Of a DNA stretch of 64,000 nt, positions 5,284 to 60,075 are shown one piece after another. The notes under the pieces are model-generated. The model was given only the letters and a program-made list of their open reading frames with translations. It did not search any database and was not told the origin of the DNA. How positions within the stretch are numbered: position 1 is the stretch's first letter; every line of letters starts with the position of its first letter. The position numbers and the translations under genes were made by a program. This DNA is from an uncultured delta proteobacterium (lineage in GTDB: Bacteria; Desulfobacterota; Syntrophia; Syntrophales; Smithellaceae), in contig CAWEQT010000001.1 in assembly GCA_963811325.1 (NCBI GenBank), positions 2,328,758 through 2,392,757 of the forward strand, written 5' to 3'.

Positions 5284-5730
5284 ATGAAAAAGTTATCAGG
5301 AACAATGGCAGCAATAATGGTAGTCGCTATTTTAGCAGGAGCTTTTATTACAACAGCAGTGTATGCCGGAGCAAAAGAGAAGGCGAGAGACGGTCGTTTC
5401 ATCGCCTATGACAACGGAACGGTATTGGACACTAAGACGAATTTAATGTGGGCGGCAAAGGACAATGGAAAAGATATTAACTGGAGCGACGCCAAGAGTT
5501 ACTGTGAGAACTATCGCGGGGGCGGCTATACAGACTGGAGGATGCCAACGCCGGATGAACTGGCGGAGTTGTATGATAGTAGCAAATCGCGGACAGGAGC
5601 ATGTAATACGAGCTATAATATTCATGTTGCCACGGAATTAATTGATATTACCTGTTTCGCTCCCTGGACTTCAGAAACGCGCAGTTCCGAGGCTGCCATC
5701 TTCGGATTCAGCCGTGGCTATCGGAGCTGA
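5284..5730 (+). CDS. DUF1566 (Lcl C-terminal domain) protein with N-terminal signal/anchor
   Basis: LMWAAKDNG..INWSDAKSYCENYRGGGYTDWRMPTPDELAELY matches the DUF1566 signature as I recall it. AAGGA lies 7 nt upstream of the ATG. Confidence 0.7.
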   Translation: MKKLSGTMAAIMVVAILAGAFITTAVYAGAKEKARDGRFIAYDNGTVLDTKTNLMWAAKDNGKDINWSDAKSYCENYRGGGYTDWRMPTPDELAELYDSSKSRTGACNTSYNIHVATELIDITCFAPWTSETRSSEAAIFGFSRGYRS

Positions 5731-6075
5731 ATTCGCCAGTCCTTTACCAACTACTTCACCCGGACTTTGCCGGTGCGTTCTGGCAAATAGATAATTTGGT
5801 CATTTCTTTTGGAGTACAGGGCGAAGACCTGTTCGTCACAAAAAAGGAGTTTCCATGAGTCGATTCATCCTTTCACATCTTTCTGCTTGAAAAAAGGTTT
5901 TTTCTGCACCTTTCCTTTATCAATCTACAATAATGTGTGTCACAGCAAGTTATTGATAAGCGAGCTGGTCTGTATATTTTTTGAAGTATCCATTAAACTG
6001 GGGTAGGTTCAGTGTGTCCGCTATGTCTGCCTGATCCATAACTACCCATAAATTATATTTAGTTGTTAGAGTTTC

Positions 6076-21538: not shown

Positions 21539-21777
21539 TGATAATAGCCCAAACTTTCTTCAAAATAAGTTAACACCAAAACCCATTCTGAATGAAAAAT
21601 GGCTCTTCAATCCAGAATGGGTAGGTTTGAGTATTTGTTTAATCTTCTTTCCCGGATAATTCAATTAATAATTTCTTCACCGGAATTTTCCATTAAAAAT
21701 AAATGTTTTCCCAATATATGTTGACAACCGCCTCGTCTTTGATAGACTGCCGCATATCATTTTAATGGAGATTAAAT

Positions 21778-22019
21778 ATGATTTCTGTTGAGGATGCCTT
21801 AAAGACAATTCTTGTTAATTTTCGGCCGCTGGGTTTGGAAAAGATAAATATGTTGCGTATATAACCGGCGATCAAGGCTCCGGCATTTTGAAATCAATGG
21901 TTAAAGCTCATGCGTTAATCGTCACGGGAGAAAAAGAAACCCGAAACAAAAAGGGAGCGCAGGTAACGATTCAATTACTGGATGACTCTTTATCTCAAAC
22001 AGAGTTTCTCCAATTATAG
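21778..22019 (+). pseudogene. moeA: moeA (molybdopterin molybdenumtransferase) relic: N-terminal ~25 codons joined to C-terminal ~50 codons
   Basis: MISVEDALKTILVNFRPLGLEKI (typical MoeA start) stops at 21862-21864. Then GDQGSGILKSMVKAHALIVTGEKETRNKKGAQVTIQLL (typical MoeA C-terminus) runs to TAG at 22017-22019. The ~350 central codons are absent. A TTGACA-16-TAGACT promoter lies at about 21721-21748. Confidence 0.65.
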
Positions 22020-22065
22020 AAAATCTCCTCAAACAATAAAAATATAGTTGATATTTTATTGCATG

Positions 22066-22094
22066 TTGACACATAGGTAATCTTGAAGTTAAAT
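22066..22094 (+). promoter_or_regulatory. promoter of tRNA-Sec (TTGACA-17-TTAAAT)
   Basis: -35 at 22066-22071 and -10 at 22089-22094, 18 nt before the mature 5' end at 22113. Confidence 0.55.
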
Positions 22095-22112
22095 TAATAG
22101 AAATTTCCCAAT

Positions 22113-22210
22113 GGAAGTGCCAAGGTCACTGGTGGGCCTCCCGGACTTCAAATCCGGTGTGGGGCGCTAAAACCGTCCCAGGTGGGTTCGATTCCCATGC
22201 ACTTCCGCCA
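22113..22210 (+). tRNA. selC: tRNA-Sec (anticodon UCA)
   Basis: 98 nt. 8-bp acceptor stem GGAAGTGC/GCACTTCC. Anticodon loop CTTCAAA (TCA at 22148-22150). Long variable arm (6-bp stem, 9-nt loop). T-arm GTGGG-TTCGATT-CCCAT. Discriminator G and encoded CCA. Confidence 0.92.
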
Positions 22211-22463
22211 ATTATTCATATAATATCAATTGTTTATCGTTTTAAATACGATCAGGGGACGATCCGACAACAGGATTGTTACGTCTGAAAAGATGTTCTG
22301 TATCACCATCCAGTGATGAATGGTTAATTTGACAATTTCTTCCGGTTATACACAAATCTCCAACATTGATGAAAAGCCTGAACCGGCAATCTGGATTTTT
22401 TATTATTGATTTTTAATTTCCATTGCTTTAACCTACGCCTACAAATTACAATAGAGAATAAAA

Positions 22464-23855
22464 ATGAAAAATATCGGAAAGCCTCTCAATAACGGATACA
22501 CTAATAGGATTCTGGCGATGTTCATGGATAATTTCGGAATGAATCGCACGGCGTCCATTGTGACCATGATCATTACCAGCATGGTCATTATCTTTTCCTG
22601 TTTCTGGTTTTTTCATTCCGCTCCGCCGAAAACAATTATCATCACCAGTGGCGAAGCAGACAGCGCTTACTATAAGGTTGCCCAAAAGTACGCCGAAATT
22701 CTGGCTCGCGACGGCGTTAAAATGAAAATCCTGACCTCCGCCGGTTCCGCAGATAATCTCAAGCGGCTTTCGGATCCGTCTTTTAAAGTAGATATCGGCT
22801 TTGTTCAAGCGGGACTGGCTAAAGGGCAAAATATCAATCATCTGGTTTCTCTGGGCAGCGTTTCCTATCAACCTCTTTTAATTTTTTATCGCCTACAGCA
22901 ACCCGTGGAAATTCTCTCACAACTCAATGGAAAGTGTATTGCCATCGGTCCGGAAGGCAGCGGGGCGCACTCACTGGCATTGGCGCTGCTTGCGGTAAAC
23001 GGCATCGAGCCTGGCGGAGCAACGACATTTCAGAATATGGAAGGTGAAAATGCGGCCGCATCCCTGCTGGCGGGAAAAACGGACGCTATTTTCTTGACGG
23101 CTGATTCCGCCTCTTCGCAGACAATGAGAACCCTGTTTCAGACTCCGGAGATTAAGCTGATTAGTTTCAAGCAGGCCGATGGCTATGTCCGCCGCATCGG
23201 TTACCTGAAAAAGCTTACCATTCCTCAAGGCGCCATGGATTTTGGCAAAAATATTCCAGCGCACGATGTTGTTCTGGTCAGCCCCACGGTGGAACTGATC
23301 GCGCGGGATAATTTGCATCCGGCGCTGTCCGATTTGCTTTTGGCCGCTGCCACAAAAATACACGGGCGCTCAGCCCTGTTTCAGAGCCGCGACGAATTTC
23401 CTGCGCCTCTGGAAAACGAATACCGCATCAGCGACGATGCAAAACGTTTTTATAAATCCGGCAAAAGCTTTTTTTACCGCTATCTGCCTTTCTGGTTAGC
23501 CAGTCTCCTCAACCGGATTCTGGTCGTGTTTGTGCCGCTCATAATTATATTGATTCCGGGGTTAAAAAGCATTCCGGCCTTATTCCGATTGCGCATGAGA
23601 CTGCGTATCAACAAGTGGTATCGACTGTTATTTCTGATTGAACAGGATTCGATGACGCAATTTGAGCCCGAGAAGATCGAAGAACTGACACGGTTAATCG
23701 ATGAAATCGAATCCGATGTCAATAAAATGAAAATGCCGGCCTCTTACGGAGACCAGTTCTACATATTGCGCACACATATTAAATTTGTACGTATCAATCT
23801 TCAGGATCGCAAAGCCACAGCATCAGGAGGAAAGGTTGCAAATACCAGCGTATGA
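22464..23855 (+). CDS. TAXI-family TRAP-type solute-binding protein with N- and C-terminal membrane anchors
   Basis: 463 aa. IIITSGEADSAYYKVAQKYAEIL...KILTSAGSADNLKRL...GFVQAG matches the TAXI (TRAP-associated) receptor signature. Hydrophobic segments at both ends. Confidence 0.6.
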   Translation: MKNIGKPLNNGYTNRILAMFMDNFGMNRTASIVTMIITSMVIIFSCFWFFHSAPPKTIIITSGEADSAYYKVAQKYAEILARDGVKMKILTSAGSADNLKRLSDPSFKVDIGFVQAGLAKGQNINHLVSLGSVSYQPLLIFYRLQQPVEILSQLNGKCIAIGPEGSGAHSLALALLAVNGIEPGGATTFQNMEGENAAASLLAGKTDAIFLTADSASSQTMRTLFQTPEIKLISFKQADGYVRRIGYLKKLTIPQGAMDFGKNIPAHDVVLVSPTVELIARDNLHPALSDLLLAAATKIHGRSALFQSRDEFPAPLENEYRISDDAKRFYKSGKSFFYRYLPFWLASLLNRILVVFVPLIIILIPGLKSIPALFRLRMRLRINKWYRLLFLIEQDSMTQFEPEKIEELTRLIDEIESDVNKMKMPASYGDQFYILRTHIKFVRINLQDRKATASGGKVANTSV

Positions 23856-29864: not shown

Positions 29865-30503
29865 ATGACAACGACAGATAGCAGACGGAAGATACCGGAT
29901 GATCTGGCAAGATGCGTGGAATTTCACGGGCATGTCTGCCCTTGTCTGATCTATGGTTACAGGGTAGCAAAAGAGGCAATAAGATTGATGAATCTAAGAC
30001 GAGCCGTTGATGAAGAAGTGGCTGCCATCTGTGAAAACGATTCCTGAGCCATCGATGCCCTTCAGGTTCTGCTCGGCACAGTGGCGGGTAAGGGCAATCT
30101 GATAATCAAAGATTTCGGGAAGAACGCCTACACGGTGCTGAACCGTTCAAAGCGGCACGCCTATCGCTTTTCCCGAAAGACGTGCTACAATTACACGGGT
30201 AAGGACAAGAACACTTTTGATCATCTGGAGAAAGCTGTTGCGGACGGTATGGCTTCGGAAGATGACCGGAGGAATCTAAAGCGCTTGAAGGTTGATGATC
30301 TGCTTGCGCGTCCCTTCGAGGAAATCTTTACTACCACGGAAGTGTCCTTTAATGAGCATCTCTACGCGCAGTTTACGCCGTCTGAACCTTGTGCCGTCTG
30401 CGGCGAGATGACTATGGCGGCAAAGATGGTGAATCTAGGTGATGAGCGGCGCGCCTGTATTCCCTGTTCGCAAAAAAAGGGTTCAAAACAGAATATTAAA
30501 TGA
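29865..30503 (+). CDS. FmdE/FwdE-family protein with in-frame TGA (30045-30047): candidate selenoprotein
   Basis: Track ORFs 29865..30047 and 30081..30503 share a frame, and the only interruption is one TGA. The merged product is CVEFHGHVCPCLIYGYRVA...[36 protein letters not shown]...CAVCGE..CIPC, a complete FmdE-family layout with a C-terminal zinc ribbon. Confidence 0.7.
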
Positions 30504-36394: not shown

Positions 36395-37138
36395 ATGAAT
36401 ATGGCCACTCAAAAAATTCGTTTGGACGAATTGCTCGTTAATCGAGGAATCGCGCCCACGCTGGAAAAAGCCCGCGCGCTGATCTTAGCCCGGGCGGTGA
36501 AAATTAATGAAACATATCTGGATAAGGCGGGCGCGCCTGTTGCGGTTGATGCCGAAATACGAATAAAGGGTCAAGACAATCCCTATGTTAGCCGCGGGGG
36601 ATTAAAACTGGAAGCTGCTTTAAAAGAATTTAAACTAAATGTTGAAAATATTGTCGTCCTTGATGTCGGGGCTTCCACCGGAGGCTTTACAGATTGCCTT
36701 TTGCAGGCAGGCGCCAGGAAAGTTTACGCTCTTGATGTAGGTTATGGCCAGTTAGCCTGGAGGTTGCGTGAAGACAGACGCGTAGTCGTAATCGAACGCA
36801 CGAATATTCGTTATTATGACGGTGCTGATTTGGACGAACGGATTGATCTTGTCACAATTGATGTTTCTTTTATTTCTCTGAAAACTGTTATTCCGGCGGT
36901 CTTAAAATTTTTAGGAGACGGGGCGCGGATTCTAGCGCTGATTAAACCGCAGTTTGAAGCCAAAAGGGAAGAAGTGGGAAGTCATGGGGTGGTTAAAGAC
37001 GCCTCTGTTCATGAACGCGTAGTGCGGGATATCAGCGGATTTTGCGTAGCTAAGAATTTAGGGGTTGAAGGAACTTGTGTATCGCCTGTTTTAGGTCCGG
37101 CGGGGAACTGGGAATTTTTTATCCTAGCGCGAAAGTAA
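36395..37138 (+). CDS. tlyA: TlyA-family rRNA 2'-O-methyltransferase (S4 + FtsJ domains)
   Basis: 247 aa. RLDELLVNRG (S4 domain), VSRGGLKL, and the SAM motif LDVGASTGGFTD. Confidence 0.9.
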   Translation: MNMATQKIRLDELLVNRGIAPTLEKARALILARAVKINETYLDKAGAPVAVDAEIRIKGQDNPYVSRGGLKLEAALKEFKLNVENIVVLDVGASTGGFTDCLLQAGARKVYALDVGYGQLAWRLREDRRVVVIERTNIRYYDGADLDERIDLVTIDVSFISLKTVIPAVLKFLGDGARILALIKPQFEAKREEVGSHGVVKDASVHERVVRDISGFCVAKNLGVEGTCVSPVLGPAGNWEFFILARK

Positions 37139-37262
37139 TACCATTTCTAAATCAAAGATGATATTGAGGCAGCTAAGCGGAGGCGACGAGGCTTATTATA
37201 CATACGTTGAGGAAGCCGACAACGACGCCAACAAAAATAGCGTTTTGATTTAGAATTGGTAT
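37138..37262 (+). repeat. 125-bp intergenic element with 20-bp terminal inverted repeats (MITE/ERIC-like), copy 1
   Basis: ATACCATTTCTAAATCAAAG ... TTTTGATTTAGAATTGGTAT. Begins on the last base of the tlyA stop and ends 9 nt before the ispH ATG. About 90% identical to copy 3 and about 80% to the reverse complement of copy 2 (by eye). Confidence 0.9.
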
Positions 37263-37271
37263 AAGAGCAAA

Positions 37272-52173: not shown

Positions 52174-52280
52174 AGAAAACGTTTGGAATTCCCCGAACAC
52201 GTTAAAAGGAAAAGTAGTCTAACTCCCGGTATTCATGGGAGTGATAGCAATCCAGTGGATGCTGTTGTTGCGCGGCGCCA

Positions 52281-52487
52281 TTATCTATTAAGTGATTGGA
52301 GTTTAAGTTTACTCATCTTTTCCGCATGACCGTTAATCCCTATCTCTTTAATCTGGCCGATGCATGCTGCTCTATCGGATTTAAATATGAAGGCAAGAAT
52401 TCTCGACATGAAGTTGTTGAATAGCTTGCAATCATTTGGATTTGAAAACTCTTTGCATTCAGCACATGAAGAATATTTGTTATTCAT
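52281..52487 (-). CDS. small Cys-rich ORF (possibly the C-terminal remnant of a DUF3795-like protein)
   Basis: 68 aa. CAECKEFSNPNDC...AAC. Lies at the edge of a decayed-looking region. Confidence 0.35.
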   Translation of the reverse strand: MNNKYSSCAECKEFSNPNDCKLFNNFMSRILAFIFKSDRAACIGQIKEIGINGHAEKMSKLKLQSLNR

Positions 52488-53203
52488 GCAAGCAGTGATC
52501 GCCTATTTAATTACTCTTTGCCATATAATATCATGTAAAGTCGCCTTAAGTTCATCTCTTGGACCATTCCGTCGGCCTGACATTGAAAGGTCCTCCGGTG
52601 CTTCTTCTAACACGCATATCAGTTAAAACATCGCCGGTTTTTTTACGGAAAGCATCCGAATGCGAAAATCAGCCTCATTTGAACCTCCCCAGAGAAAAGG
52701 CAATGAAAAGATAAAAAATATATATGGTGTCAATTCTTCAATACGTAAAATAATGATTGTATCAACGCCTCCCTTGGAAAACTGTTTCAACAATTCTGAT
52801 TCAGGTTTGCTCGACCAACTGGAAAAGTCTCTAATGTTGCCAGGTACAGAAAGACTCCCACAAGGGAAACCTTGAAATGCATTTTTGATTTCTTCTAACG
52901 CTATTGATTCCCTTTTAGCTGGTTATTTCTGGTCATTTCTCCATGCTGTTTCAGGCAAAACGGCTATAGGCTCAAGACCATTTTTTTTCCGTCACAAATC
53001 GTCGGCTGTCCAGCCGCATGGTAAATCTTCATAGATGTACTTGCGCACCCTGAAATCGCCAACGTTAAGAATTATAGAGACTACATAAATGACTTTCATA
53101 TTAAATGACCTTTTAACATTTTAGCGCATAACGAAAAAATTAGATGAAGTATAGCGGAATGCGCCAAAATGCGTAGCATTTTGGCGCCAGATTGACTTAC
53201 TTA

Positions 53204-53614
53204 TTAAATCAATCGCTCGCGCCACTGTCTGAGCTTGGAATAGTGAAAACCTCCGGCAAACAAGCATAAAAGGATTGTTTGCAGGAACCACGTTGGCAGC
53301 ATATGCCATGCTGTAATATGCCCTAAAAGAACAGCCATGACTTCGGTCAGTACAAGACCATAGATTACAAGCACAGTGAGAGCAGCTATAATTTTGCGTT
53401 TTAGAGGCTTTTGATATGCCCAAACCAACAGGGCTGTCCAGCCAAGCATGAGCGAAGCACCATAACCCATAGCAAATTGGTATGCCCCTGACACGTCATC
53501 AAAACCCCAAAGAAGATGTGCAAGAGATTGGTCAATCATGGGCAAGATAGCCAGCGCATCTGTGATGGTACCGGCCAAGAACGCTACTCGAAGGACCTTT
53601 TCTTGACTCCACAT
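53204..53614 (-). CDS. small integral membrane protein, unknown function
   Basis: 136 aa with four hydrophobic helices. Confidence 0.6.
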   Translation of the reverse strand: MWSQEKVLRVAFLAGTITDALAILPMIDQSLAHLLWGFDDVSGAYQFAMGYGASLMLGWTALLVWAYQKPLKRKIIAALTVLVIYGLVLTEVMAVLLGHITAWHMLPTWFLQTILLCLFAGGFHYSKLRQWRERLI

Positions 53615-53810
53615 ATAATCTCCTTAGTCACTTTATGGACTAACATTGTTTATATGGATCATTGCTAATATTACAAACGCCGCATTTTTTGTAAATAGAA
53701 ATGTGAATCCGAAAACTTTAAAAGAATTGAAATTATAAAAACATAATTCGTTATTGTTTGTCAATATGCGTTGTCAAACAGTTCAATTTTAGATATATAA
53801 CTACGAGTCC

Positions 53811-59537: not shown

Positions 59538-59939
59538 ATGCCGGAAAGAAAAATTCGCGTGATGGTTGCCAAACCGGGGCTTGATGGCCACGATCGCGGC
59601 GCGCGAATTCTTGCGCGCTGTTTCCGCGATGCCGGATTTGAAGTTGTTTACACAGGCTGTCATCAAACACCTGAACAAATTGTTGCGGCCGCTATTCAGG
59701 AAGATGTTGATCTGGTTGGTTTGAGCTGTCTTTCCGGCGCTCACCGCATGCTTTTCCCGCGGGTTGTGGAACTTTTGCGCGAAAAAGACGCGTCCGATAT
59801 CACCGTCATCGGCGGCGGCATCATTCCTGAACAGGATTTACCTATGCTTTACGATGCCGGCATCAAAGCGATTTTCACTCCCGGCGCCTCGCTTGATTCC
59901 ATTGTGGAATGGATTAAAACAAATATAAAACCACACTAA
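59538..59939 (+). CDS. acyl-CoA mutase small subunit (cobalamin-binding domain)
   Basis: 133 aa. DxHxxG motif (GLDGHDRGA), ...SxL...GG. Confidence 0.92.
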
Positions 59940-60063
59940 TACCAATTCTAAATCAAAGATGATATTGAGGCGGCTAGACAGAGGCTACGAGACGTATTAT
60001 ACATACGTTGAGGAAGCCGACAACGACGCCAACAAAAATAGTGCTTTGATTTAGAATTGGTAT
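59939..60063 (+). repeat. 125-bp TIR element, copy 3
   Basis: ATACCAATTCTAAATCAAAG ... CTTTGATTTAGAATTGGTAT (perfect 20-bp TIR). Begins on the last base of the B12-subunit stop and ends 12 nt before the meaB ATG. Confidence 0.9.
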
Positions 60064-60075
60064 AGGCAAACAAAT

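Follow-up and report, generated by a model that had tools for sequence, protein, structure and literature searches.

We analysed a 64,000-nucleotide (nt) stretch of an uncultured Smithellaceae genome (GenBank assembly GCA_963811325.1, contig CAWEQT010000001.1, positions 2,328,758 to 2,392,757; hereafter the window), in which an FmdE-family gene is interrupted by an in-frame TGA at codon 61, the column of an invariant metal-binding Cys. We find it slightly better than an even bet that this TGA arose recently from TGT as a nonsense mutation and became fixed in a single, near-clonal lineage of Smithella-like bacteria. An earlier note on this sequence had proposed a candidate selenoprotein and treated a nonsense pseudogene as a mere fallback; we find a plain nonsense mutation to be at least as likely as selenocysteine (Sec) insertion at this codon, and somewhat more likely. 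Translation would then stop after residue 60, without Sec insertion, the truncation would remove the fourth metal ligand, the β-sheet core and the zinc ribbon of the encoded protein, and the gene would rank as a pseudogene of very recent origin, or at best as a leaky allele. Our estimate leans this way because no diverged TGA form of the gene was found, the hairpin that follows the TGA is not specific to it, and the gene decays in relatives.

A TGA codon in the metal site of an FmdE-family protein

Translation of positions 29865-30503 gives one frame whose sole interruption is the TGA, just as the earlier note described it, and the read-through product is, again as claimed there, a complete FmdE/FwdE-family protein. 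It matches the Pfam FmdE profile (PF02663) end to end (profile positions 1-133 of 133, E = 1.3e-31, 109.8 bits against a cut-off of 22.9) and contains HGHVCPC at residues 21-27, a 12-residue core motif and a C-terminal C176xxC179...C198xxC201 zinc ribbon. The FHGHxC motif, which was defined in the structural description of the family (PMC2954224) and carries three metal ligands (His, His and Cys), is present as F20-H21-G22-H23-V24-C25. An AlphaFold (AF2) model of the read-through product, with a predicted local distance difference test score (pLDDT) of 74.9, matches only the FmdE-family structures 2GVI (E = 2.9e-10), 2GLZ (1e-8) and 3D00 (2e-4). The predicted tryptic peptide across codon 61 would consist of AVDEEVAAICENDS, residue 61 and 15 further residues.

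The column interrupted by the TGA was examined in two sets of homologues: the 22 closest in the database (74-84% identity, from Smithella and Smithellaceae metagenome-assembled genomes, MAGs) and 83 fetched loci from bacteria and archaea (35-83% identity). The column is Cys in all 22 of the closest homologues, within the invariant context ICENDS-C-A[VI]DALQ, and in 89 of the 90 aligned homologous segments of the fetched loci, where the aligned codon is TGC in 54 cases, TGT in 35, AGC in one (a second paralogue) and TGA in none; the conserved Cys that the earlier note had proposed for this column is confirmed by alignment. Residue 61 aligns without gaps with Cys55 of Protein Data Bank (PDB) entry 2GLZ in a PDB sequence search, equivalent to Cys61 of 2GVI. 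In 2GLZ, a Zn/Ni ion that is accessible to solvent is bound at the putative active site by His15, His17, Cys19 and Cys55, their counterparts in 2GVI are His16, His18, Cys20 and Cys61, and one crystal form of 2GVI places an unidentified ligand 1.8 Å from the Cys61 sulfur (Axelrod et al. 2010, PMC2954224). Because residue 61 aligns with these two cysteines, the TGA stands where the fourth ligand of a His2Cys2 site should be encoded. The gene is therefore an FmdE-family member in every respect tested except this one, the codon aligned to the fourth-ligand Cys being TGA.

Syntenic orthologues of the gene are single open reading frames (ORFs) in the fetched loci L001-L003, L014 and L016; in these loci, in the window and in L005, a further relative discussed below, the gene is flanked by the same DnaJ-like and D-Ala-D-Ala-ligase-like genes. 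L001-L003 have TGT at the position of the TGA, a single base change. Identity to L001 and L002 is 87% in the part N-terminal of the TGA and 79-81% in the C-terminal part. In the metal-site motif, Cys27 of the window protein replaces a Gly found in all other Smithella-clade orthologues, and is shared only with the deletion variant L099 (see below).

Table 1. Features of the window, in window coordinates; position 1 is the first nucleotide of the 64,000-nt stretch.
Feature	Position	Strand	Remarks
FmdE-family (PF02663) gene	29865..30503	+	212 codons with codon 61 read through; gene callers give two ORFs, 60 aa and 140 aa
In-frame TGA, codon 61	30045..30047	+	column of the invariant Cys, fourth His2Cys2 ligand; TGT in nearest orthologues
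Metal-site motif H21-G-H23-V-C25-P-C27	29925..29945	+	Cys27 is TGT, 29943-29945
Treble-clef zinc ribbon C176xxC179...C198xxC201, C-terminal	30390..30467	+	intact, downstream of the TGA
Hairpin after the TGA	30051..30103	+	lower stem 30051-30061/30091-30103, upper stem 30070-30075/30085-30090
Apical loop GCACAGUGG, 9 nt	30076-30084	+	alternative loop CGGCAC; starts 26-28 nt after UGA
tRNA-Sec gene (selC)	22113..22210	+	ARAGORN; Rfam RF01852, 77.4 bits against a gathering score of 47
Lcl_C/DUF1566-family gene with in-frame TGA	5284-5790		TGA at 5728-5730, 19 codons before the family's usual end
Membrane-like ORF, 136 aa	53204-53614	-	
Cys-rich ORF, 68 aa	52281-52487	-	

Carriers of the TGA and the fate of the gene in relatives

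Independently assembled ENA, NCBI and Logan data contain the identical split into 60 and 140 residues on at least 22 contigs, as exact-sequence look-ups of both ORF products show. The TGA is present in all 13 contigs that we fetched, the gene is identical in each over 639 of 639 bases, and the contigs match the window at 99.96-100% identity over up to 15 kb. Since 13 independent assemblies carry the identical gene, the TGA is not an assembly or sequencing error. The carriers are one near-clonal lineage, too uniform to reveal selection on the TGA.

None of the collections searched yielded a second, diverged TGA form. A degenerate-pattern scan for CENDS-TGA-A[VI]DA over 185,579 species genomes and the JGI metagenomes returned no matches, nor did a scan of the JGI metagenomes for the context HGHVCPCLIYG; the 90%-identity cluster of the 140-residue fragment has a single member, and a homology search with this fragment recovered full-length Cys proteins and a few short artefacts, with no TGA form among them. 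Two short homologues of 137-139 residues, P0128 and P0129, were considered as further TGA forms and rejected, as both are scaffold-gap or contig-edge artefacts with TGC. Published selenoprotein pipelines use conservation, that is, UGA in diverged lineages and purifying selection downstream after its origin, to exclude pseudogenes, and the window gene, with its TGA in one clone only, falls on the wrong side of that filter.

Pairwise Nei-Gojobori estimates of the ratio of nonsynonymous to synonymous substitution (omega, dN/dS) are 0.306 for the window against L001 and 0.306 against L002. Three-taxon branch estimates are 0.33-0.63 for the window and 0.16-0.28 for its sister, with wide and overlapping bootstrap intervals, one of which (0.22-0.77) excludes 1. 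With L016 as outgroup, a relative-rate test shows the FmdE gene not to be accelerated relative to neighbouring genes (Fisher p 0.5-0.8). An acceleration seen with L014 as outgroup was rejected, since neighbouring genes are equally asymmetric in that comparison and L014 is no true outgroup. At columns that are otherwise invariant, the window protein carries six substitutions of its own (G27C, V53A, R120H, P161S, P165H and L170F), as compared with zero to five in the other 22 sequences; this count and the higher branch omega speak for the nonsense reading. The dN/dS comparisons nevertheless show that purifying selection acted on the gene for most of the history of its lineage. Constraint until recently, together with an otherwise intact gene, means that the lesion is very young or that the gene is still functional, and the clonality of the carriers fits a young lesion.

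The gene appears to be dispensable in relatives, judging from two further copies. In L005 (Smithella sp. SPRUCE 570 MAG, positions 2036-2668), the syntenic FmdE copy carries a CGA-to-TGA change at codon 136, G22W in the HGH motif, and both C179F and C198F in the zinc ribbon, and is either a clear pseudogene or a low-quality consensus. Several of the changes in this copy are G-to-T. In L099 (ENA ERZ27256877, a 920-nt contig, positions 442-708), a 369-nt in-frame deletion between GCCATCTG repeats has removed codons 57-179, leaving 88 residues in which the first 56 are joined to the zinc ribbon. A sister relationship of L099 to the window, considered on the basis of the shared Cys27, is doubtful, as polarised sites group L099 with L001 and L002 by three sites to one. 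That HxHxCxC might form a compact four-ligand site that dispenses with Cys61 is pure speculation.

The window contains a second in-frame TGA, in a Lcl_C/DUF1566-family gene (Table 1). The column of this TGA is Trp in 7 of 11 aligned homologues; all homologues end in ...RALPVRSGK, as does the window read-through, and the Pfam match spans the stop. The lesion recurs in other assemblies of the clone (P0137 and L100), where a truncated ORF is called, and the hairpin test described below finds no SECIS-like hairpin after it. This TGA is probably a TGG-to-TGA nonsense lesion. The clone thus carries at least one plain TGA nonsense lesion among about 45 other genes, and chance TGA-at-Cys lesions are therefore expected to number on the order of one per genome.

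Hairpin, tRNA-Sec and the decoding of UGA61

To place the two leading readings on one scale, we took chance nonsense to occur in about 1 in 45 genes, to fall on a conserved Cys in about 2% of cases, and to be followed by a hairpin resembling a bacterial selenocysteine insertion sequence (bSECIS) at 2-22% of sites, and we assumed truly novel single-lineage selenoproteins to number a fraction of one per Sec-rich genome. At these rough rates, the starting odds of the nonsense and selenoprotein readings differ by less than a factor of ten. Hairpins were assessed with our own implementation of the bSECIS constraints quoted in a 2026 review (PMC13188914), rather than with bSECISearch: a loop of 3-9 nt with a G in its first two positions, an upper stem of at least 4 bp, a UGA-to-loop distance of 16-37 nt and a free energy of -7.5 kcal/mol or below.

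Several observations weigh against a plain nonsense mutation, and most of them favor a newly born selenoprotein, in which UGA61 would be decoded as Sec by SelB and tRNA-Sec with an ancestral hairpin serving as a makeshift SECIS; we hold that reading only tentatively. Exactly one of the 73-77 one-step nonsense mutations possible in the gene yields the codon-61 stop, so that a random one would land there with a chance of 1.0-1.4% (8-14% for any Cys codon of the gene), and exchanges of Cys for Sec occur at just such metal-ligand positions. Apart from codon 61 the frame is free of premature stops and frameshifts, and the gene retains its other ligands, its motif residues and its zinc ribbon; this clean state and the exact hit on a ligand Cys push toward Sec, as does the constraint on a gene whose TGA is verified in 13 assemblies. 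The pairwise omega between L001 and L002, both of which are intact, is 0.315, the same level as in the window comparisons (about 0.31). The clone occurs in many public samples, among them the sources of SRR34864995/6, SRR31840436/40, ERR12076131 and ERZ25039466, and a cost of the allele is not obvious; a public 2.78-Mb contig and the assemblies GCA_052326005.1 and GCA_052916125/145/205 also represent it. The window hairpin lies within the bSECIS constraints, with a 6-bp upper stem, a 9-nt or 6-nt loop, a spacing of 26-28 nt and a free energy of -14.4 to -15.9 kcal/mol; only 2.2% of 1,500 random in-frame coding positions in window genes are followed by a hairpin as stable, and none of 14 genuine TGA stops tested passes. 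The window selC is canonical, with an 8-bp acceptor stem, a 5-bp T stem, a UCA anticodon, a G73 discriminator and an encoded CCA. Finally, Syntrophales are rich in selenoproteins, Syntrophus aciditrophicus having 19, and Deltaproteobacteria in particular are known to gain new selenoproteins from Cys homologues (PMC1794560).

On the hairpin, the earlier note stands in part. The stem, TGCCCTT (30056-30062) paired with AAGGGCA (30090-30096), and the inner 4-bp helix lie precisely where the note placed them, and the fold does fit the bSECIS constraints at the right distance. The same test is, on the other hand, passed downstream of the Cys codon by 39 of 43 Cys-encoding orthologues, 14 of the 43 with a hairpin at least as stable, and among the 1,500 random positions 22% pass the loose rule and 12% a stricter loop rule. 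The GCCCUU/AAGGGC complementarity follows from conserved Ala-Leu and Lys-Gly codons. Over a 66-nt stretch, the window differs from L001-L003 only at TGT/TGA, GTC/ATC, GAC/GAT and GTA/GTG (L001-L003/window). GAT at D64 and GTG at V73 were considered as changes that strengthened the hairpin in the window lineage and rejected, since the outgroups L014 and L016 carry the same states, which are therefore ancestral; the window lineage thus shows no hairpin-improving change and no lineage-specific tuning. The RNAfold z-score of -0.95 is unremarkable, the best-scoring fold lacks the commonest G[G/U] loop arrangement, and no SECIS-type Rfam match was found in 29950-30250 at E values up to 10. A scan of the fetched loci for FdhA-type UGA motifs, intended to supply a reference SECIS, returned nothing. 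We conclude from these folds and alignments that the hairpin would make Sec insertion mechanistically conceivable, with no evidence of selection for a SECIS.

The selenoprotein reading meets further difficulties beyond the hairpin: its single clonal lineage, the loss of the gene in relatives and the presence of another, non-Sec in-frame TGA in the window. FmdE/PF02663 is not a known selenoprotein family, being absent, as the earlier note had suspected, from a 2026 inventory of 119 prokaryotic selenoprotein families, and no paper pairing FmdE with selenoproteins was found in the literature searched. The tRNA-Sec gene that the note placed about 8 kb upstream is recovered by both ARAGORN and Rfam, 7.7 kb upstream of the FmdE-family gene, and tRNA-Sec genes are also present in L087 and L088; neither the 64-kb window nor the 10 kb to the left of it showed selA, selB or selD. 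On the selenoprotein reading, Sec would take the place of Cys as fourth ligand of the His2Cys2 site, or would pair redox-wise with the new Cys27. The candidacy proposed in the earlier note accordingly keeps its invariant central Cys and its canonical selC, and is weakened by the lack of a diverged TGA form, the broken copies in relatives and the second TGA; none of the findings that the note had named as fatal to it turned up, the aligned column being Cys, relatives having single ORFs and a SECIS-like fold being present.

The surroundings of selC differ between loci. In the window, selC (region 21539-22463) sits between mfd and an NMT1_3-family gene, at a position where L001 and L002 have a bestrophin-like gene and L001 (1163-2509) also has an integrase-arm fragment; no tRNA-Sec was found within 10 kb of the equivalent position in L001 or L002. 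These differences point to a rearrangement, or to an island inserted at selC or close by. The NMT1_3-family gene is one 463-residue ORF in the window (22464-23855) and in L002, and two ORFs of 248 and 196 residues in L001 (2625-3987), probably owing to a frameshift in that metagenomic contig.

It is improbable, in our view, that UGA61 is read as a standard amino acid to give some full-length protein, be it through a selC*/SelB* suppressor or through near-cognate read-through by tRNA-Cys or tRNA-Trp. Genes for tRNA-Sec-like tRNA-Cys (selC*), some with a UCA anticodon and then accompanied by a second selB, are known from Syntrophobacterales and Desulfobacterales, one has been reported in a composite Smithella genome, and in E. 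coli such a tRNA inserts Cys at UGA (Mukai et al. 2017, PMC5389517). The FmdE gene is otherwise intact, and both in-frame TGAs of the window fall at Cys or Trp columns, for which the tRNAs are near-cognate for UGA; such columns need no special explanation, however, because TGT/TGC and TGG are among the few codons one step from TGA. The sole tRNA gene of the window is a canonical selC and not selC*, since it has G73 rather than U73; the gene that follows it belongs to the NMT1_3 family and is not selB*, and neither the window nor the adjoining 10 kb on the left showed any selC*, selB* or cysS*. A general reassignment of TGA is rejected, since TGA is the ordinary stop of 16 of the 46 window ORFs, at orthologous ends.

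A sequencing or assembly error, or two truly separate genes, for which the annotation of 60- and 140-residue ORFs by gene callers might speak, is effectively refuted by the identical 639-nt gene with its TGA in 13 assemblies from separate ENA, NCBI and Logan samples, by orthologues that are all single ORFs, by a break that falls inside the core of the fold at a metal ligand, and by a GTG at 30081 with no evident ribosome-binding site.

If the TGA is a plain nonsense mutation, as we favor, the gene is an ordinary young pseudogene and chiefly a caution: where coding regions of Sec-using bacteria are rich in Cys and in G+C, chance can produce the combination of a TGA at a conserved Cys, a hairpin and a tRNA-Sec gene, and singletons with this signature should not be annotated as selenoproteins. 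Should UGA61 instead specify Sec, the known selenoprotein families would gain FmdE, and the window protein, born by a one-base Cys-to-Sec conversion, would be the first of its family to contain Sec, which would bind Zn/Ni or pair with Cys27. The locus would then record the opening step in the evolution from Cys to Sec. Such a protein could have been functional at once because a SECIS-compatible hairpin pre-existed, as it does in about 90% of Cys orthologues, and would be a natural example of how new selenoproteins pass the problem of needing UGA and SECIS simultaneously. We regard this picture, in which a selenoprotein is seen just after its origin and has recruited an older hairpin as its SECIS, as possible and rather unlikely.

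Other window features and comparison with known systems

An intergenic element of about 128 nt occurs twice in the window, at approximately 37136-37265 and 59937-60066, with about 90% identity between copies, upstream of lytB-like and meaB-like genes. With 22-nt inverted repeats at its ends, TAATACCAATTCTAAATCAAAG ... CTTTGATTTAGAATTGGTATA, the element may be a palindromic repeat resembling a miniature inverted-repeat transposable element (MITE) or a repetitive extragenic palindromic (REP) sequence; no Rfam family matches it at the gathering threshold. A 1.6-kb region, 52174-53810, has no ORF of 150 residues or more (for two shorter ones, see Table 1).

Compared with FmdE/FwdE proteins (PF02663; 2GLZ, 2GVI and 3D00), the window gene shares the full-length Pfam match, FHGHxC, Asp64 and Gln67 of the second motif and the treble-clef CxxC...CxxC, and like most members of the family it lies outside any fmd/fwd operon; it differs in the fourth-ligand TGA and in the exchange of Gly27 for Cys, which gives HxHxCxC. 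A selC*/SelB* opal-suppression system, as considered above, would let a deltaproteobacterium that uses Sec translate a UGA in a Cys column as Cys, but the window tRNA, with G73 and the 8/5 arrangement, is a canonical selC. With the selenoproteins that arose by exchange of Cys for Sec, such as FdhA, the large subunit of [NiFeSe] hydrogenase and SelD, the window gene has in common a UGA at a conserved functional Cys, a host tRNA-Sec, a hairpin 16-37 nt downstream and abundant Cys homologues; unlike them, it has no diverged Sec form, shares its hairpin with Cys orthologues and belongs to a family outside the inventory of 119. With young nonsense pseudogenes, here represented by L005, L099 and the Lcl_C gene, it shares a one-base premature stop relative to all orthologues, confinement to one clone, independent degradation of the same gene in relatives and a second TGA lesion in the same window, whereas it differs from them in having no secondary lesions, a hit at the site expected for Sec and a dN/dS well below 1.

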